In this document: piece after piece, positions 54,461 to 61,496 of the stretch
Numbering within the stretch: position 1 is the stretch's first letter
How the letters are laid out: every line of letters begins with the position of its first letter
NCBI GenBank assembly: GCA_019136685.1
Contig: JAGVTS010000064.1
Location: 3,087 to 67,086, forward strand
Length of the DNA: 64,000 bases
From: Bacillota bacterium
Lineage (GTDB): Bacteria; Bacillota; DTU025
Direction of reading: 5' to 3'
The notes under the pieces: generated by a model
What the model was told of the DNA's origin: nothing
The model's input: the letters and a program-made list of their open reading frames with translations, nothing else
Database searches by the model: none
Program-made: the position numbers and the translations under genes

Positions 54461-55189
54461 ATGGAGATGATTGAGAGAGCCCTCTGGATAGTACGATTGC
54501 TGCTCATCAAGCTCCTCGGCAGACTGGCTACGGCCGACGACTCAGTCTGTTACGTGGGGAGCCACGAGACGCTTCCGGCTCCGCTTACCCCGGACGAGGA
54601 GGCGTGCCTGATCGGCCGACTTATGGGTGGGGAGGAGGATGTCAGGGCAGAACTGGTGGAGCGCAATCTGAGGTTGGTCGTGTACATCGCCCGCAAGTTT
54701 GAAAGCACCGGAGTGGGCGTGGAGGACCTGGTGTCCATCGGTACCATAGGCCTAATAAAGGCCGTCAATACATTCGATCCGAGCAAGCGGATAAAGCTGG
54801 CCACTTATGCGTCCAGGTGTATTGAAAACGAGATACTGATGCACCTGCGCAAGACCAACAGAATCCGAAGCGAGGTATCATTCGACGAACCGCTCAACGT
54901 TGATTGGGACGGCAATGAACTTCTCCTTTCGGACGTGTACGGGACTGACGACGACCTGATATACCAGGCCATCGAGGAGGAAGTAGATCGTGCCCTGCTC
55001 AGCGAGGCTTTAGCCGCCTTGACCGGCAGGGAGAAGCGCATCATGGAGCTGAGATTCGGCTTCACAGGCGGGTCCGAAAAGACTCAGAAGGAGGTAGCCG
55101 ACCTGCTCGGGATATCGCAATCATACATATCCAGGCTGGAGAAGAGGATCCTGATCAAGCTGAGGCACCAGATAGTCAGGGCTGAGTGA
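54461..55189 (+). CDS. sigE: RNA polymerase sporulation sigma factor SigE (pro-sigma-E)
   Basis: Pro-sequence [22 protein letters not shown], then ...[57 protein letters not shown], near-identical to B. subtilis SigE. Confidence 0.9.
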
Positions 55190-55394
55190 GACGATCACTG
55201 CAGCAGTCGGCGGCACGTGCCCAAGTCGCGCCCGGTCGGGGGAAGATCCACCCGGCCGGGCGCTCCACTATCTTGACAGCCAATGTGTTTGCACTCAATT
55301 CGAATAAGTGCAACAGAATAAACGTCGAGCATCGGAGCAATACTCTTACTGGAATCCCGGCGACGCGAAGTCAAGATTGTGGGGTTGTTCCGAA

Positions 55395-56168
55395 ATGGCG
55401 CTGAACAAAGTTGAGATCTGCGGCGTCAATACCTCGAAGCTTCCGGTGCTCTCGAGCACGAAGATAAGGGAGCTTCTGGAGGCAGTGCGCGACGGCGATG
55501 AGGAAGCGCGTGACAGGTTGATATACAGCAACCTCCGGCTGGTGTTGTCGGTCATTCAGCGCTTCACCAACAGAGGCGAATACGTTGATGACTTATTCCA
55601 GGTGGGCTGTATCGGCCTGATCAAGGCCATCGACAACTTCGACCTGGGGCAGAACGTCAAGTTCTCCACATACGCAGTACCCATGATAATCGGCGAAATC
55701 AGAAGGTACCTGAGGGACAATAACCCGATCAGAGTGTCGCGATCCCTGCGCGACATCGCCTATCGGGCTCTGCAGGTCCGTGACAGGCTCGTCGCTGATA
55801 CCTCTCGAGAGCCAACGGTGACCGAGATCGCCGCCGCCTTGGGCCTCCCGCGCGAGGAGATAGTGTACGCCCTGGACGCCATACAGGAACCGATATCCCT
55901 CTTCGAGCCGATATACCACGACGCGGGCGATCCCATCTACGTAATGGACCAGGTGTCGGATGACAAGAACCTGGACGTCAACTGGCTTGAGGGCATTTCC
56001 ATCAAGGAGGCCATGCTGAGGTTGCCGGCGCGCGAGCGCCTGATACTCCGACTCCGATTCTTTGAGGGTAGGACTCAGATGGAGGTGGCCGACGAGATCG
56101 GGATTTCGCAGGCACAAGTATCTAGACTTGAGAAGGCCGCTCTGAAACAGATGAGGGCCTCGATGTAA
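55395..56168 (+). CDS. sigG: RNA polymerase sporulation sigma factor SigG
   Basis: MALNKVEICGVNTSKLPVL...LRLVLSVIQRFTNRGEYVDDLFQVGCIGLIKAIDNFDL...YAVPMIIGEIRRYLRDNNPIRVSRSLRDIAY..., near-identical to B. subtilis SigG. Confidence 0.9.
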   Translation: MALNKVEICGVNTSKLPVLSSTKIRELLEAVRDGDEEARDRLIYSNLRLVLSVIQRFTNRGEYVDDLFQVGCIGLIKAIDNFDLGQNVKFSTYAVPMIIGEIRRYLRDNNPIRVSRSLRDIAYRALQVRDRLVADTSREPTVTEIAAALGLPREEIVYALDAIQEPISLFEPIYHDAGDPIYVMDQVSDDKNLDVNWLEGISIKEAMLRLPARERLILRLRFFEGRTQMEVADEIGISQAQVSRLEKAALKQMRASM

Positions 56169-56182
56169 AGGAGGGTTACGCC

Positions 56183-56962
56183 ATCAAACACGAACTCGCT
56201 GTCAGGGTAATCACGTGCGCCGCAATACTCGCTCTGTCATTCGTATGCTTCATGGCCGCGACTGCTCGCCCTTCCGGAGCTAGGGCGCCTGAAGAGGCGA
56301 CGCCCGCCTACAACTCGGGGAACCTCATCAGGCTGCACGTCGTTGCGCCCGGCGACGATCCCCAGAGCCAGCGCCTGAAATTCGCCGTGCGCGACAGTGT
56401 GCTTGAGGAGACCGGCAGGCTCCTGCAATCGGCGGACGATGCGAATCAGGCAACCCGGATCCTTCGAGCAAACCTATGGCAGATAGAAGCGGCGGCCGAG
56501 GAAGCGGTGGCCAGGAGCGGCACTTCACATCGAGTGCAAGCCGCTCTGGGCACATTTTCTTTTCCGGGCGTCTCGTACGGAAACGCCTTGCTGCCGGCCG
56601 GAGACTACCTTGCTCTGAAAGTGGCGATTGGGCCCGCGTTGGGCGCCAACTGGTGGTGTGTGCTGTTCCCACCCCTGTGTCCGGTGGACCTGGAGAGGAC
56701 ACGCATCCTGGAGGTCGCTGCGACCGCGGGCGATTCCTCTGCCCCAGGTTGGCAGAGCAATGCCGGCGGGCGGCTTCTCACACTTGAACTGGCGATGCAT
56801 GCCGGACCTCTGGCCGGGGCCGTCGCCCGCAGAGAGGCCACGTTCTACCAGATCGCCACCGGTTCTCCGCGTCTGACTCTGGCCCAACTCACCTGGGAAA
56901 TTCCTGCCTGGGCCTGCCGTCTTCTGAAGTGGCCCCAGCTTCAGCAGGCACGCAGCCGGTAG
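56183..56962 (+). CDS. spoIIR: stage II sporulation protein R (SpoIIR), forespore signal activating SpoIIGA
   Basis: IRLHVVAPGDDPQSQRLKFAVRDSV and GANWWCVLFPPLC match SpoIIR hallmarks (B. subtilis IRLRILANSDSDQDQQLKRHIRDAV ... GANWWCVLFPPLC). First ATG is 56252, but the signal peptide (IKHELAVRVITCAAILALSFVCF) is encoded upstream with no canonical start. ATC 56183 lies 7 nt after AAGGAGGG. Confidence 0.8.
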   Translation: MKHELAVRVITCAAILALSFVCFMAATARPSGARAPEEATPAYNSGNLIRLHVVAPGDDPQSQRLKFAVRDSVLEETGRLLQSADDANQATRILRANLWQIEAAAEEAVARSGTSHRVQAALGTFSFPGVSYGNALLPAGDYLALKVAIGPALGANWWCVLFPPLCPVDLERTRILEVAATAGDSSAPGWQSNAGGRLLTLELAMHAGPLAGAVARREATFYQIATGSPRLTLAQLTWEIPAWACRLLKWPQLQQARSR

Positions 56963-57017
56963 AACCGCCTCCTGCCGAAGCCTCAGCGCTTCGATTGCAC
57001 TCATCTGTTGCCTCCTG

Positions 57018-57025
57018 CATACAAT
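57018..57025 (+). promoter_or_regulatory. sigma-E-like -10 element CATACAAT upstream of ylmC (tentative)
   Basis: Matches the sigma-E -10 consensus CATACA-T. A putative -35 (TCATCTG) sits at suboptimal spacing. Confidence 0.25.
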
Positions 57026-57060
57026 GTGAAGGTTCATCATCTCCTGCAGGAGGTGCCTCA

Positions 57061-57330
57061 ATGATTCTCCGAGCTTCCGAACTCCGTGTCAAAGAAGTCG
57101 TCAGCGTCAACGACGGCAAGCGGCTTGGCTACATATTCGACCTCGAGATCGACATGGATACGGGCAAGGTCATTAGCTTCGTGATTCCCGGAGGCGGCAG
57201 GATCCTGGGTTTTCTGGGGCGCGGAGGTGAACTCGTGATCGACTGGGAGAACATCAAGAAAGTCGGCAAGGACGTGGTTTTGGTAGACGACTCCGAGCTC
57301 GCCGGCGCCGGCGGGTACACACCGGGCTAG
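57061..57330 (+). CDS. ylmC: PRC-barrel sporulation protein YlmC/YmxH family
   Basis: MILRASELRVKEVVSVNDGKRLGYIFDLEIDMDTGKV aligns to B. subtilis YlmC MISISEFQVKEVVNVSNGKKLGSIGDIDINVTTGKI. ATG preceded by GGAGGTG. Confidence 0.85.
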   Translation: MILRASELRVKEVVSVNDGKRLGYIFDLEIDMDTGKVISFVIPGGGRILGFLGRGGELVIDWENIKKVGKDVVLVDDSELAGAGGYTPG

Positions 57331-57436
57331 GCACGGCACGCGCTTGGAAAGTGTCCGTATGCCGCAACCAATGGCTTCACTTGCCTTCGAGGGGGGACAA
57401 TATCCGAGACGCATAACACAATAGCGCCGATTAGCC

Positions 57437-57465
57437 TTGAAAGCCGGGGCGCATGATGCTATACT
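57437..57465 (+). promoter_or_regulatory. strong sigma-A-type promoter TTGAAA-N17-TGcTATACT driving the Hint-domain gene
   Basis: Near-consensus -35, 17-nt spacer, extended -10 (TGn), then GGAGGA SD 8 nt before ATG 57489. Confidence 0.6.
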
Positions 57466-57488
57466 GCGCCTGCTGGAGGAGATGCTTC

Positions 57489-57995
57489 ATGCAATGTTGC
57501 TTGCCGGAGAATACAGCATTACTCATCAAAGACTCCACAGGTGAGGTCAAGCGAGTTACGCTGGACTATTTCGATGCCATGCTTAACGACGAACCGGATG
57601 GTCCCGCCCTCGGCAGCCTGAAGGCGCTCGGCCGCGACGGCTGGGTGGAGTTGACATCGGTCAGTCGCAGGCGCCTATGGGAAGGCGAGGAGCTGTTGTG
57701 CGTCCGCACACGTTCAGGGCAGATCGCGTTGACCGGCGACCACAGGATCGCGGTCAAGCGTGGCATGGAGGATATCGTCGTGCCTGCCAGGGACCTTGGC
57801 ACAGGAGACGCCATGATGGTCTTTGAACAGCCGGCGCTGGGCAAGAGCGCTCGTCCTATCGGGGAAGAGCCGGTATTCAGGCCTTTCGGCGTGCTGTCGG
57901 TGATCAGAACCGTTGGCTACGATGGGCGTATGTATCAAGTTGAAACCGCCGACCACACGCTGGTGGCCAACGACTTCCTTACGCACACGGTGTAG
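57489..57995 (+). CDS. stand-alone Hint (intein-like / Hedgehog-intein) domain protein, 168 aa, essentially no exteins
   Basis: Begins MQ-C-CLPENTALLIKDSTGEVKRVTLDY (intein block A with Cys at the junction), has TGDHRIAV (block B T-x-x-H), ends MYQVETADHTLVANDFLTHTV (blocks F/G, with the terminal HN replaced by HT). Confidence 0.6.
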   Translation: MQCCLPENTALLIKDSTGEVKRVTLDYFDAMLNDEPDGPALGSLKALGRDGWVELTSVSRRRLWEGEELLCVRTRSGQIALTGDHRIAVKRGMEDIVVPARDLGTGDAMMVFEQPALGKSARPIGEEPVFRPFGVLSVIRTVGYDGRMYQVETADHTLVANDFLTHTV

Positions 57996-58094
57996 TCGAA
58001 GTTCGTACGGCTGCTTGCCGTCTGGTCTCTGCGTCATAGTCGCATACCTGACCTTCCGAAATGCGCCAACACCGCCAGGAGCGCCCGGAGGCCC

Positions 58095-58118
58095 GCCGTG
58101 GTATAATGGTGGTCAGGC
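58095..58118 (+). promoter_or_regulatory. extended -10 promoter GCCGTGGTATAATGGTGGTCAGGC upstream of the HlyD-like gene (copy 2 of the repeated motif)
   Basis: Same TGGTATAAT plus downstream GGTCAGGC as at 50154-50177, with a 1-nt insertion. Confidence 0.5.
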
Positions 58119-58171
58119 AATTGTGGCCGTCCGTGCCATGCGTCCAGGAAGAGCGAGAGGCAGAGACAGGG

Positions 58172-59443
58172 ATGTGGACTACTCCGAAGCGAAAACGCCC
58201 GAGGCTTGAGGAGCGTACTGCCGCCGAGCGTGCTCAGAAACGTTTTGCAAAGGCTGCGGCCGTGGTTGTGGTCGCAGTGCTTTCATATTCTCTCTTCGCC
58301 GCCGTTCGCCCCATGATTACGATGAGGTCATCCGGAACAGCCCATGCGTATTCGGGATGGGTCGAGGTATCGTTTCCAGGCGATGCGGTGATCGTTCGCG
58401 ACGAGCGAATTGTCGCCACCCCGATCAGCGGCGTAATCCACTTCGTCGTGGAAAACGGTGAACGGGTTGCAGCCGGCGCAGTTGTGGCTGAGGTGCGCGA
58501 CAGGGCGGCTTCCGAAGCCCCGCAGTCCGGTTCACTTAGGGCTGAGGAGGAGACCGACCGGTTTGTGCAGGAGTGCGCCATGCGCGAGCAGCGCGAGAAG
58601 GAGCGGCTTTCGGCGCTGAGAGTTCAGATTGCCATCAAGGAAACCGAGCTTCGGGCGTACATCGATCGCAAGGACGCCAAGAATGCTAACCGACTCCACG
58701 CGGAACTCGCCGAACTCCGTCAACGCGAAGATCAAGCAGTTGACGCCCTTGCCCGGATCCAGGAGGAGGCGCGAGCCGCAGCAGCAGCGGTGGCCGAAGC
58801 CAAGCGCCGATCCGATATCTCCTCCACTCGCGCGCTTGCCGTGCTGCGGGCCTTCGGCGCATCCCTTGTCAGCACCCACATCGATGGGCTGGAGGGCGTG
58901 TATAGCCCGGCCAACCCCGACCTCCTCGGGGTCTCGCCCGCCGACCACACACCTTATCCGCGCGCCTGCTCCGAGGGAGATTCAGTTGCCGCAGGCGCCG
59001 CGGTCTTTCGGGAAGTGCAGAACCTCCGCACCAACTTGCTGGTCTTCGCGGATGTGCCTGAAGATGCAGTGCCGGGGGCAGGGAGCAGGGTGCGCGTGCG
59101 CTTCCCCAGGCTTGCCCTAGAGGCCGTCCCTGCCACTGTGATAGGCAGCCGACGACGACCGGATATGTCGGCCAATACCTGGTCATTTCACATTGCCCTC
59201 GACCGGTACGCTACGACCCTGACGGACCTGCGCTCGGAGAAGGTCACACTGGTGACCGAGCGCGTATCAGGGATCTTGATTCCTCGCTCAGCCCTGGCGC
59301 GAAAAGACGATGAGTATGGCGTATGGCTGCTCAGGACCAACCGGTTCATCTGGCGCAGCGTGACCGTGCTCGGCATGAACGAGGAGGAGGCGGCAGTCGA
59401 GGGAATACGAGAGGGCGACCGGGTGCTTATCAGGCCGCGGTAG
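58172..59443 (+). CDS. HlyD-family / membrane-fusion-protein-like secretion protein (N-terminal TM, lipoyl-like hairpin, long coiled coil, beta-barrel)
   Basis: TM AAAVVVVAVLSYSLFAAV; lipoyl-like ISGVIHFVVENGERVAAGAVVAEV; ~100-aa coiled coil; C-terminal beta-rich region. ATG 58172 after GAGAGGCAGAGACAGGG. Occupies the slot where ylmD lies in B. subtilis. Confidence 0.5.
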   Translation: MWTTPKRKRPRLEERTAAERAQKRFAKAAAVVVVAVLSYSLFAAVRPMITMRSSGTAHAYSGWVEVSFPGDAVIVRDERIVATPISGVIHFVVENGERVAAGAVVAEVRDRAASEAPQSGSLRAEEETDRFVQECAMREQREKERLSALRVQIAIKETELRAYIDRKDAKNANRLHAELAELRQREDQAVDALARIQEEARAAAAAVAEAKRRSDISSTRALAVLRAFGASLVSTHIDGLEGVYSPANPDLLGVSPADHTPYPRACSEGDSVAAGAAVFREVQNLRTNLLVFADVPEDAVPGAGSRVRVRFPRLALEAVPATVIGSRRRPDMSANTWSFHIALDRYATTLTDLRSEKVTLVTERVSGILIPRSALARKDDEYGVWLLRTNRFIWRSVTVLGMNEEEAAVEGIREGDRVLIRPR

Positions 59444-59495
59444 AGGAATCCGCAGCATGGCGGAGAATATCTAGCTCTGTACGAGGTGGGAAGTC

Positions 59496-60188
59496 TTGCC
59501 GTCTATCTTCGATAATCTTCGTTGTGTGCTCGATAACATCGCCGCGTCCGCCGCGCGGGCGGGGCGTGACCCGTCCGAGGTCCGGCTGGTAGCTGTGACC
59601 AAGAACGTGGACGCGGCCAGGATATGCAGCCTAGTATCGGCCGGCGTCGGCCATCTTGGCGAGAACCGGGTGCAGGAGGCGGCTCAGAAGATCCCGCAGG
59701 TAGCCGGATCGCCTACCTGGCACTTAGTGGGGCACTTGCAGCGCAACAAGGCGCGGCACGCTGTGGAATTGTTCTCGGTGCTCCAGTCTCTCGACAGCCT
59801 GGAGCTTGCGGCTGAGCTCGACCGGAGGTGCGCGACCCGTGGGGTCTCCCTCGATGCGCTACTACAGGTGAACATATCCGGGGAGTCCACCAAGTATGGA
59901 GTGGCGCCTGATGCGGCAGCCGGCATGCTTCGGGAGATGCCCAGGTTCGAGCATCTGCGGGTTCTCGGCCTGATGACCATGGCCCCGTATTCGGAGGATG
60001 CCGAGGATGCCCGGGTCTGGTTTCGGGCTCTACGCCATTTGGCCGGTGAGCTTTCGACTCTCCGCCTGAGCAACGTGGCCATGGACGAGCTGTCCATGGG
60101 GATGTCCGGCGACTATCAGGTGGCTGTGGAAGAAGGCTCGACCATCGTGCGGGTGGGAACGGCAATTTTCGGCCCGCGTGTTCGCTGA
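59496..60188 (+). CDS. ylmE: YggS/YlmE family pyridoxal-phosphate homeostasis protein
   Basis: VRLVAVTKNV (PLP Lys), GHLQRNKA and ...MGMSGD... motifs. TTG start preceded by GAGGTGGGAAG. Confidence 0.85.
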   Translation: MPSIFDNLRCVLDNIAASAARAGRDPSEVRLVAVTKNVDAARICSLVSAGVGHLGENRVQEAAQKIPQVAGSPTWHLVGHLQRNKARHAVELFSVLQSLDSLELAAELDRRCATRGVSLDALLQVNISGESTKYGVAPDAAAGMLREMPRFEHLRVLGLMTMAPYSEDAEDARVWFRALRHLAGELSTLRLSNVAMDELSMGMSGDYQVAVEEGSTIVRVGTAIFGPRVR

Positions 60189-60220
60189 GCCGCCAGGCGT
60201 ACTCGACTGGAGGTGAGCTT

Positions 60221-61015
60221 ATGGACCTGGAGTCATTGGCGCGCGAATCGGCGCACAAGACCATTGAATCCAGCTCCCCTGTTTCCATGGGCTTCCTTGA
60301 GCCAAAGGAGCAGGAAACCGTAGTCCGAGCCCTGTCCGGCAACGCGGACGTTGTCGTGAAGCGCTACGGGGGATACCGGGGAGCGGTTCGTCGGAAGACT
60401 GTGGTGATGCCTGCCTACTACATCGACGAAGCCTACGATCCGCAAGTGTCGTTCTTTGTCGTGCGTAGCGCTGTTGTTACGGCCAACGGGGGCCGTGAAT
60501 CCGTGGTGGCCTCCCTGCGCGCAATGGGTATCCCCAGCGAGAGCATTGGCGACCTTTTCTGGACCGGCCAAGAATGGCAGGGGGTTATCGACGCGAATGT
60601 CTTTCGCAGCGACGACAAGGGTAGCGGTCGAGGTCGCGGCGGCCGCGCTTCAGGCGATCTGGCAGAGCTGGATCCGGCGGAGGTTTCCTATCCTGGCCAG
60701 GCCGCCAAGACCATACGGGCCACCGTGGCTTCCATGCGCCTTGATGCAGTGGCCGGGGCGGGCTTCCCTGCGTCACGTACCCGCCTAGCGCAGGAGATTC
60801 GGGTTGGTAGGGTTCGCGTCAACGGCGTCACTTGCGATTCGCCGGCAGCGCACGTATCCCAGGGAGATGTGATTGTCTGCCGCGGGCGCGGCAGGCTTGT
60901 CGTTGAAGAGGTGGCCGGCGCCACAAAGCGTGGGCGCATCTCTCTAGTTCTTACGCGCTACTCGGTGCAGATACCTGACCGCAGGGAGGAGAGTGGAGAT
61001 GCTTACGCCACTTGA
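60221..61015 (+). CDS. ylmH: YlmH-family RNA-binding protein (S4 domain)
   Basis: C-terminal S4 domain (RLDAVAGAGFPASRTRLAQEIRVGRVRVNGV). Position between ylmE and divIVA. Confidence 0.7.
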   Translation: MDLESLARESAHKTIESSSPVSMGFLEPKEQETVVRALSGNADVVVKRYGGYRGAVRRKTVVMPAYYIDEAYDPQVSFFVVRSAVVTANGGRESVVASLRAMGIPSESIGDLFWTGQEWQGVIDANVFRSDDKGSGRGRGGRASGDLAELDPAEVSYPGQAAKTIRATVASMRLDAVAGAGFPASRTRLAQEIRVGRVRVNGVTCDSPAAHVSQGDVIVCRGRGRLVVEEVAGATKRGRISLVLTRYSVQIPDRREESGDAYAT

Positions 61016-61496
61016 GGTGCATTCTAAACAGTTCACAGCCAGGTTCGGGCGATATAGCGCCGCCGAGGTGGACGACTTTCTGGACCTAGTGGGCCAGAGC
61101 TACGACCAGATCTACCGGGAGAACGCCGAGCTCAAGGAGAGGCTACGTTCGCTTTCCGAAAAGCCGCCGCAACATGATCCGGCCGACATCGGCGAGACGC
61201 TTAAGCAAACTCTATTAATGGCGCAGAACGCCGCGGAGGATGCCCGGCGAAGCGCTGAGGAGAAAGCCCGGCTGGTCGTGGAGAATGCTGAGCGTGAGGC
61301 TGCTGCCGTTCTTGATCGCGCCCAGGAGAAGGTGCGCAGTCAAGAACAGCGTCTGGAAGATCTCGTGGCCCAGCACGGCACACTCCGGGCCCGCATGAAG
61401 GCCATGCTCGAGGCGTATCTGGAGATGCTTGAAGATTCAGCAGTGAGCCTATCTGATATGCAGCTCGGTTCAGCCCGCGACGGCCGGAAGGAGTAA
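60993..61496 (+). CDS. divIVA: cell division/sporulation protein DivIVA
   Basis: MEMLTPLEVHSKQFTARFGRYSAAEVDDFLDLVGQSYDQIYRENAELKERL is a canonical DivIVA N-terminal domain, followed by coiled coil. Confidence 0.85.
   Translation: MEMLTPLEVHSKQFTARFGRYSAAEVDDFLDLVGQSYDQIYRENAELKERLRSLSEKPPQHDPADIGETLKQTLLMAQNAAEDARRSAEEKARLVVENAEREAAAVLDRAQEKVRSQEQRLEDLVAQHGTLRARMKAMLEAYLEMLEDSAVSLSDMQLGSARDGRKE

Follow-up and report, generated by a model that had tools for sequence, protein, structure and literature searches.

A stand-alone, splicing-dead relative of NrdD inteins at a constant slot in the ylm division cluster of uncultured Bacillota

Inteins are generally seen as selfish elements, and we know of very few clear cases in which a host has recruited one for a function of its own: yeast HO and, more distantly, Hedgehog. 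HO retains its homing-endonuclease domain together with a zinc-finger extension, and these are used in mating-type switching. It is a domesticated intein of the VMA1 type that has become a free-standing gene, its splicing domain inactive and a host function acquired (PMC5056185). In bacteria, Arth_1007 of Arthrobacter sp. FB24 is a near-extein-less intein (66 amino acids (aa) in total) that has no block B His and cannot splice (PMC3196547). Bacterial intein-like (BIL) domains lie inside hypervariable regions of larger, non-conserved proteins, the A-type keeping His-Asn, and Hog domains release the N-terminal signalling domain to which they are joined and carry a sterol-recognition region (SRR); the roles of the intein blocks are established and are summarised in the same source (PMC7765530). 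Here we describe a gene for a stand-alone Hint (mini-intein) protein in a 64-kb stretch of DNA from an uncultured member of the Bacillota (contig JAGVTS010000064.1 of assembly GCA_019136685.1). The whole 64-kb stretch is called the window below and its coordinates are used throughout; L- and P-labels denote related loci and proteins. The Hint superfamily is known; the novelty lies in a bacterial intein derivative that stands alone, is dead for splicing, has passed down vertically and bears a new invariant motif at a core division locus. An earlier note on this DNA, made from the letters alone, had proposed a free-standing Hint-domain gene with its own strong promoter, inserted after ylmC, and had remarked that it knew of no sporulation or division gene of this kind in earlier descriptions. 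This agrees with the literature that we searched, in which we found no recruited stand-alone bacterial Hint domain and no Hint or intein-like gene in the ylm or division and cell wall (dcw) cluster; a large survey of Firmicutes division genes covers YlmC/YmxH and has no gene of this kind (PMC8136486).

The open reading frame (ORF; Table 1) opens MQCCLPENTALLIKD, holds TGDHRIAV (T82..H85) and closes MYQVETADHTLVANDFLTHTV before the stop; the ORF, motifs, promoter, Shine–Dalgarno (SD) sequence and neighbours of the earlier note, including a complete ylmC, are all present in the sequence. The family goes undetected by present Pfam and NCBIfam models. PF14890 (Intein_splicing) gave E 0.027 and 14.7 bits against a cutoff of 35.8, and TIGR01445 (intein N-terminal region) gave E 0.011 and 16.7 bits against a cutoff of 24.5, with a match spanning model positions 1–82 of 83. 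None of the other Hint-type Pfam models, PF01079 and PT-HINT included, matched the window protein at E<=1, and phmmer with the single protein against PDB sequences found no match. A family profile made from 18 homologues and searched exhaustively against 1.84 billion representatives gave 73 matches; besides small stand-alone proteins, the strong ones were larger proteins matched over profile positions 3–166. When Pfam was run on 20 of the profile matches, 16 proved to be anaerobic ribonucleotide reductases (NrdD; ATP-cone plus NRDD) with Intein_splicing, some of them with LAGLIDADG endonucleases. The NrdD inteins were matched at E 1e-16 to 1e-8 over residues 3–166, the match beginning at about residues 165–185 of NrdD, and the position of the intein was always the same (...HIHD(K/L)DFYxLTET|C....VHN|CCQIDLEKL...). 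Against the PDB the family profile retrieved the intein 9hth at E 0.005. An AlphaFold2 model from the 18 close homologues alone was unusable, with a predicted local distance difference test score (pLDDT) of 50.7; NrdD intein segments were then added, and the model on the combined alignment reached a pLDDT of 92.9 and a predicted template modelling (TM) score of 0.88. In Foldseek the best 50 PDB matches of this model were all inteins, Hedgehog HhC or BIL domains (E to 4.6e-9, TM score to 0.75). Of the checks proposed in the earlier note, the comparison of a predicted structure with inteins therefore upholds a free-standing Hint domain, as does the profile search where the family profile is concerned, although PF14890 and TIGR01445 stayed under their cutoffs.

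Among described proteins the NrdD class 1 mini-inteins are the closest by sequence (about 25–29% identity). They are of similar length, have blocks A, B, F and G in register, and have in common with the window protein the YFD and G(W/F)T features and the Hint fold. Cys4 aligns with Cys1 of the 14 NrdD inteins and the protein stops one residue past the position of the intein terminal Asn, with blocks A, B, F and G in one contiguous chain and no sequence outside the Hint core. The differences are as clear: the NrdD inteins are embedded in an enzyme of 600–700 aa and in 14 of 14 have Cys1, TxxH, the F:4 Asp and His-Asn|Cys, whereas the window protein is without exteins, F:4 Asp, terminal Asn and +1 Cys, and has an L-W-E motif at a hairpin tip, its own promoter and a slot unrelated to nrdD. 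A neighbour-joining tree parted 14 stand-alone proteins from the 14 NrdD inteins with a bootstrap of 182/200 (187/200 without the motif and catalytic columns), and this split indicates that one capture event gave rise to the stand-alone family. No trace of a host enzyme was found beside the gene: a tblastn search of the entire window with the N- and C-exteins of NrdD gave no match, as would not be expected of the remnant of a pseudogenised host gene that the earlier note had considered, and with a full NrdD precursor the intein part alone matched (57498–57818, E 4e-15). The flanks of the Hint gene have stops in all frames, and there is no nrdD gene in the window or in the loci examined. We have very high confidence in the identity of the gene as a Hint/intein derivative and in its evolutionary status; the earlier reading had overlooked both the NrdD-intein origin and the invariant RxLWExE motif described below. 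As a separate observation, three NrdD precursors (P0045, P0053 and P0028) hold two to three inteins at different sites, with NRDD split into two to three pieces, and because several precursors hold multiple inteins these communities evidently have an intein hot-spot in NrdD.

Conservation was counted over 55 family sequences, all unique and full-length, and over the 14 NrdD inteins of the alignment. Within the family, Cys1 of block A is present in 51/55 (P0022 has Gly there and P0003 has Tyr), the block B Thr in 54/55 and the block B His in 34/55 (Gln in 16, Ala in 4, Thr in 1), while the Asp at block F position 4, the terminal Asn at its aligned position and the +1 Cys are each found in 0/55; at every one of these positions the count among the NrdD inteins is 14/14. 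The window protein itself has Gln150 at F:4 where Asp is expected, Thr167 for the terminal Asn and Val168 at +1, followed by the stop. As judged from the alignment, neither splicing nor C-terminal cleavage is possible in any member of the family because F:4 Asp, terminal Asn and +1 nucleophile are all missing in 55/55, which extends to every member what the earlier note had said of the window protein. The block B His, which Tori & Perler describe as essential for catalysis and as the best-conserved residue of inteins (PMC3196547), has been lost in separate lineages (P0019, L042, P0022, P0030 and P0023/P0091) and is kept in the window's clade, P0018, L040 and L041. For much of the family, N-terminal thioester formation would thus appear impossible or at best improbable. 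In 18 low-GC members an Asn stands one residue past the canonical end, where the alignment is ambiguous; the C-termini of the low-GC clade (P0023, P0030, P0091/P0105; L014–L019) read ...AQN-V, ...VQN-A or ...VTN-RD, and the block B His is missing there. Two clades seem to retain opposite halves of the old catalytic apparatus. At the other end of the protein the extension before Cys1 is mostly 3–6 residues across the family. A Cys-Cys doublet (MQCC, 57495–57500) is found in the window and also in P0001 and in the distant L042 (4446–4451), the residue ahead of Cys1 in other members being Ser, His, Asn or Gly; a vicinal Cys at −1 beside the catalytic Cys is reminiscent of redox-trapped inteins.

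Nine residues (W52, R61, L63, W64, E65, E67, R91, G134 and T153) are invariant in 55/55. L63-W64-E65 is found in 0/14 NrdD inteins and is a derived feature. In the secondary structure of the AlphaFold2 model the invariant motif forms the turn between strands 51–62 and 68–74, at the tip of a long hairpin that precedes block B, and W64 and E65 would be exposed there, with W52, R61 and R91 close to them, as far as this can be read off secondary structure only.

Set against the other described systems, the window protein conforms to a canonical class 1 intein in its block A Cys and block B TxxH and departs from it in four defining features. Like HO, it is the product of a free-standing intein-derived gene that has lost splicing; HO, however, is eukaryotic and has an endonuclease domain, whereas the window protein is bacterial and has none, so that any action must come from the Hint fold itself. 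Like Arth_1007 it is bacterial, nearly extein-less and splicing-dead, but Arth_1007 is a lone class 3, phage-derived pseudogene with no sign of conservation, whereas the window gene is one of a monophyletic family that is under purifying selection and in which synteny, the promoter and a new invariant motif are conserved. BIL domains are likewise bacterial Hint domains, usually without a +1 nucleophile and cleaving rather than splicing, and two BIL structures (Clostridium thermocellum 2lwy and Tetrahymena BIL2 6y75) were among the fold matches; the window protein differs in being stand-alone, at a conserved core-genome locus and nearest in sequence to true NrdD inteins. BIL-type motifs were not found in it, a judgement made from its nearest relatives (the strong profile matches are all NrdD inteins) and not with a dedicated BIL profile. 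Hedgehog/Hog proteins share the Hint fold (1at0 and 6tyy were among the matches) and carry out a Cys1-dependent N–S acyl shift without splicing, but the window protein has neither a cargo domain nor an SRR. It is not a split intein, having blocks A, B, F and G in one chain and no half fused to an extein, and it differs from the pretoxin-HINT domains of polymorphic toxins in having no C-terminal domain and in having ylmC and an HlyD-like gene as its neighbours.

The family is rare, with about 20 clusters at 90% identity among 5.8 billion proteins and only five GTDB species representatives that have the gene; its carriers are all metagenome-assembled genomes (MAGs) of uncultured Bacillota or Clostridia, and the existing public labels are 'Hint domain-containing protein', 'intein/homing endonuclease' or 'hypothetical protein'. 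All 55 members are stand-alone, with lengths of 168–185 aa (longer calls are over-extended starts) and a reading frame that is intact in the 55 unique sequences. About ten lineages carry the gene, at loci with a GC content of 0.32–0.63 and with protein identities of 22–99%: identity to the window protein is 71–99% within the window's clade, 54% for P0017, 49–51% for L040/L041, 46% for L042, 39% for P0018, 38% for P0019, 29% for P0022, 26% for P0030 and for P0091/P0105, and 22% for P0023. The pairwise ratio of nonsynonymous to synonymous divergence (dN/dS) is 0.10–0.22, with dS up to saturation (above 1.5), and the GC content at third codon positions (GC3) of the Hint gene, 0.72, equals that of the neighbouring genes. 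Because of this dN/dS and the equal GC3, the Hint gene is a resident gene under purifying selection, neither a recent insertion nor a decaying remnant. The wording 'inserted after ylmC' in the earlier note thus does not hold if a recent event was meant, the gene being ancient, monophyletic and fixed at its slot; the search for orthologues and their neighbourhood that the same note had proposed led to about ten lineages with the same slot. A phage or defence origin was considered and rejected because the viral contig scan found no relative of the Hint protein and neither PHROGs nor PADLOC gave a match for it; PADLOC gave two weak matches of coiled-coil type on the HlyD-like neighbour (DndD, E 0.003, and AriAB, E 0.08).

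The slot is constant. The gene lies 3' of ylmC, which is its neighbour in most lineages and adjoins it in L001, L009, L013, L014, L017 and L040–L042, or straight after ftsZ in L011/L012, where there are no sporulation genes; in L016 another gene stands in place of the sporulation genes between ftsZ and the Hint gene. In the window the genes for FtsA, FtsZ, SpoIIGA, sigma-E and sigma-G lie farther upstream and those for YlmE, YlmH and DivIVA downstream. The downstream order across loci is ylmD (Cu-oxidase_4) and/or the HlyD-like gene, then ylmE, (sepF), ylmH and divIVA, and the HlyD-like gene is found 3' of the Hint gene, directly or past ylmD, at every locus long enough to tell, and is the sole gene of which this holds. 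When the search was made from HlyD-like homologues, down to 51% identity, every lineage examined had the Hint gene, and three lineages picked as possible comparators without it all encode a 168-aa family member. Since the gene is also present at L011/L012 and L016 without adjacent sporulation genes, gene order places its genomic link with the ftsZ–ylm division module and not with sporulation as such; the earlier note was right about the location in a sporulation/division cluster. The division cluster thereby gains an unrecognised conserved gene within ylmC-ylmD-HlyD-like-ylmE-ylmH, a segment that is poorly understood.

The promoter that the earlier note had called strong is conserved across lineages as TTGAAA-N17-TGnTATACT. 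The promoter scan found 2 sites against 0.4 expected from shuffles. TTGAAA is unchanged in the window, L001, L004–L009, L013 and L020–L041, and differs by one base in L042; the −10 region is kept as TGCTATACT, TGTTATACT or TGGTATACT across lineages whose proteins are just 38–54% identical. At that same level of protein identity the whole block, TTGAAA-N17-TG(c/t/g)TATACT-(t)(g/t)CGCCTGCTGGAGG, is near-identical, while the spacer and the upstream DNA diverge. A promoter/leader DNA probe matched 20 metagenome loci, of which 19 were immediately 5' of a family ORF (the 20th match was without the −35 and without the SD), and the block is found once in the window; the L009 copy extends over the 3' end of ylmC. 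With its hexamers conserved and its spacer free to vary, the block shows the pattern of a genuine extended −10 promoter of the sigma-A type, and from the −10 element a transcription start is predicted at about 57471–57473 (near 57472). A sigma-A-type promoter fits growth-phase expression and presence at loci without sporulation genes, promoters for sporulation sigma factors having been weighed by eye only and not by a formal sigma-E/F/G/K scan. As to the translation start, an in-frame ATG at 57453 would yield a 180-aa product, but it sits 5' of the −10 element and is not conserved; the equivalent of 57489 is the start in all relatives, with GGAGG 9 nt before the ATG. The protein is acidic (isoelectric point 5.1) and has no hydrophobic segment, and because of this it is presumably soluble and cytoplasmic.

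Some smaller features of this region may be recorded here. The leader of about 20 nt is more strongly conserved than the protein (window 57466–57488; L001, L009, L013 and L040–L042), and a search of 55000–60000 with Rfam at permissive thresholds found no RNA family. A leader hairpin, CGCCU-N5-AGGCG (5–6 bp, partly over the SD), is predicted in 6/7 lineages, the window's clade being the exception; with z-scores of −0.6 to −1.0 against shuffles and no covariation it is unsupported. Tandem units of 10–16 nt abut the −35 (window 57420–57436; L005, L006, L007, L034 and L036) and differ in copy number among close relatives: TAGCGCCGAT occurs once in the window, twice in L034 and three times in L006, TGCGGATCGATTTACC twice in L005, CCGCTCGATTTGC three times in L036 and GCATGTGCGCTGAT three times in L007. 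These units could be an UP-element or activator-site region in which slippage tunes promoter strength.

From these results we lean, with somewhat better than even confidence, towards a domesticated intein from NrdD that has been kept as a host gene and acts as a non-enzymatic binding or adaptor module of the ylm division cluster. In this reading a complete mini-intein of the NrdD site became a separate gene, with three residues before its first Cys and one after its last strand, and has been inherited at one slot, ftsZ-(spoIIGA-sigE-sigG-spoIIR-ylmC)-[X]-(ylmD)-HlyD-like-ylmE-ylmH-divIVA, where X is the Hint gene. Selection would then act on the new invariant surface around the hairpin-tip Trp-Glu pair (R61-x-L-W-E-x-E67, with W52 and R91) and not on the old active site, and the rigid Hint horseshoe would serve as a non-enzymatic binding/adaptor or regulator module for a ylm division component. 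One such component could be the HlyD-like membrane protein, with the acidic Hint protein docking on its basic cytoplasmic tail. A non-enzymatic mode appears the most likely one because it is the invariant motif and not the catalytic set that is preserved; for a non-catalytic binding mechanism as such the chances look to us about evenly balanced, and the HlyD-like protein, though the leading candidate for a specific partner, is a doubtful one. In the window's clade a slow N–S acyl shift with loss of Met-Gln-Cys would be chemically possible, because blocks A and B there still have Cys1, Thr and His, and would be vestigial rather than a conserved function. The fuller account, in which this is the first bacterial intein exaptation, an NrdD mini-intein captured once in the ancestry of several uncultured Bacillota lineages that lost splicing, gained a Trp-Glu hairpin-tip site and became a dedicated part of the FtsZ-proximal, sporulation-adjacent ylm division module that may work with the HlyD-like protein, is put forward tentatively and we rate it at rather less than even. 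The family is a natural series that runs from N-terminal catalytic residues kept to the same residues lost, with one common motif and slot, and because it forms such a series functions of the Hint fold beyond autoprocessing are testable with recombinant proteins.

Several points weigh against a binding module. R61, E67 and R91 (also T153) are frequent in NrdD inteins and only L63-W64-E65 is truly derived. Cys1 is kept in 51/55, better than a purely vestigial residue would be, which hints at a Cys-dependent chemistry or a structural role, and the N-terminal catalytic triad is complete in the window's clade. The promoters of the Hint and HlyD-like genes appear separate, half of the lineages have ylmD between the two, and the pairing of these genes may reflect shared cluster ancestry rather than interaction. 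The binding role itself is argued from conservation patterns in uncultured MAGs.

The alternative that survives best is active autoprocessing, in which Cys4, Thr82 and His85 would form an N-terminal thioester and the protein would either mature to one with an N-terminal Cys or transfer or accept an acyl group. It stays alive because Cys1 is so well retained, in company with the block B Thr (B:7) and, in the window's clade, P0018, L040 and L041, with the His too, and behind an N-terminal extension that is always very short. We nevertheless consider it unlikely, and the N-terminal cleavage for which the earlier note had pointed to Cys1 is doubtful as the point of the protein: 21/55 have Gln, Ala or Thr in place of the His, in at least five lineages that still have the gene, the slot and RxLWExE, Cys1 itself has gone in P0022 and P0003, and the block F Asp is missing throughout. 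Moreover, a three-residue 'N-extein' (Met-Gln-Cys/Ser) leaves no obvious product, and there is no attached partner domain, be it a sterol-recognition region, a toxin or a signalling domain.

Improbable, in our estimate, is a trans-acting factor for NrdD or its intein that would bind the NrdD exteins or the resident intein and tune splicing, or anaerobic deoxynucleoside triphosphate supply, with division. Inteins contact their flanking exteins, and the closest relatives of the family are specifically inteins of one NrdD site, but the loci examined hold no nrdD, the neighbours are ftsZ and ylm genes and not those of nucleotide metabolism, and the derived invariant motif is not found in NrdD inteins. 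More improbable still is a decaying selfish remnant, an orphaned intein pseudogene like Arth_1007 that awaits deletion. The splicing residues are indeed degraded and a near-extein-less inactive intein is known (PMC3196547); against decay stand a dN/dS of 0.10–0.22, an intact frame, steady length and nine invariant residues across 22–99% identity, a fixed position in about ten lineages of 32–63% GC, and a conserved promoter and SD of its own. A recent horizontal spread of the segment is opposed by the same GC range and by synonymous saturation (dS above 1.5). The least credible of all is an annotation artefact, the intein being part of a larger disrupted gene or having an upstream start and a real N-extein: the 180-aa product from ATG 57453 would favour it, but that ATG precedes the −10 element, the start at 57489 has a GGAGG and is conserved in all lineages, stops interrupt every frame of the flanks, which show no NrdD similarity, and both ylmC and the HlyD-like gene are complete.

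Table 1. Coordinates of the Hint gene, its elements and the adjoining genes in the window
Feature	Position	Strand	Basis or remark
spoIIR	56252-56962		Pfam/NCBIfam
ylmC/ymxH-family PRC-barrel gene, complete	57061..57330	+	PF05239 4e-13, TIGR02888 2.5e-25
−35 hexamer TTGAAA of the Hint gene's own sigma-A-type promoter	57437..57442	+	promoter scan and conservation
Extended −10 TG-c-TATACT	57457..57465	+	promoter scan and conservation; 17-nt spacer to the −35
Conserved leader GCGCCTGCTGGAGG with Shine–Dalgarno GGAGG (57475-57479)	57466..57488	+	cross-lineage conservation
Stand-alone Hint (mini-intein) protein, coding sequence	57489..57995	+	168 aa, stop codon counted in
Cys4 codon, block A position 1 nucleophile	57498..57500	+	aligned with NrdD inteins; only Met-Gln-Cys ahead
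Family motif R61-R-L63-W64-E65-G-E67	57669..57689	+	invariant; predicted beta-hairpin tip ahead of block B
Block B T82-G-D-H85 (Thr-x-x-His)	57732..57743	+	alignment; the window's clade retains the His
Blocks F and G, Y149-Q150-VETADH-TLVANDFLT-H166-T167-V168	57933..57992	+	alignment with NrdD inteins
Extended −10 TGGTATAAT of the HlyD-like gene	58099..58107	+	read from sequence; kept in L004, L005 and L008; variant in L007
HlyD-like 'putative membrane fusion protein' gene (BSH_RND_rel)	58172..59443	+	PF12700 (HlyD_2) 4e-25; TIGR02828 under cutoff

The automatically called HlyD-like ORF opens at 58061, and the conserved N-terminus of the protein, MWTTPKRKRP, begins at the ATG at 58172. The latter is probably the true start of a gene with its own promoter, because TGGTATAAT falls inside the 58061 extension and the N-terminus is conserved from 58172; the arrangement suggests that the Hint and HlyD-like genes are separately promoted. 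The HlyD-like proteins (window 58172–58300; L001, L009, L013, L014, L016 and L017) have a basic cytoplasmic tail, e.g. PKRKRPRLEERTAAERAQKRF, and one transmembrane helix, and share the motif IVRDERVV.TP.SG past this helix; the HlyD-like protein of the window also has a barrel-sandwich domain. No cognate transporter gene of the ATP-binding cassette (ABC) or resistance–nodulation–division (RND) type is adjacent to the HlyD-like genes, and because of this the HlyD-like protein is unlike the usual efflux adaptor.

The loci differ in minor respects around the constant slot. The ylm segment of the window (59496–61496) consists of ylmE-ylmH-divIVA, without sepF (ylmF), ylmG or ylmD; tblastn with SepF and YlmD of related loci found neither anywhere in the window, and two low-GC relatives, L014 and L017, carry ylmD as well as sepF. 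The gene between ftsZ and the Hint gene of L016 is a 1020-aa pertactin-like ORF (L016 2799–5861). L013 has a 181-aa ORF on the minus strand between ylmC and the Hint gene (L013 5185–5730) and L040 an additional 92-aa ORF (L040 3936–4214), and L017–L019 carry an insertion of ABC-transporter, TetR and helix-turn-helix genes between spoIIR and ylmC (L017 3995–7214).

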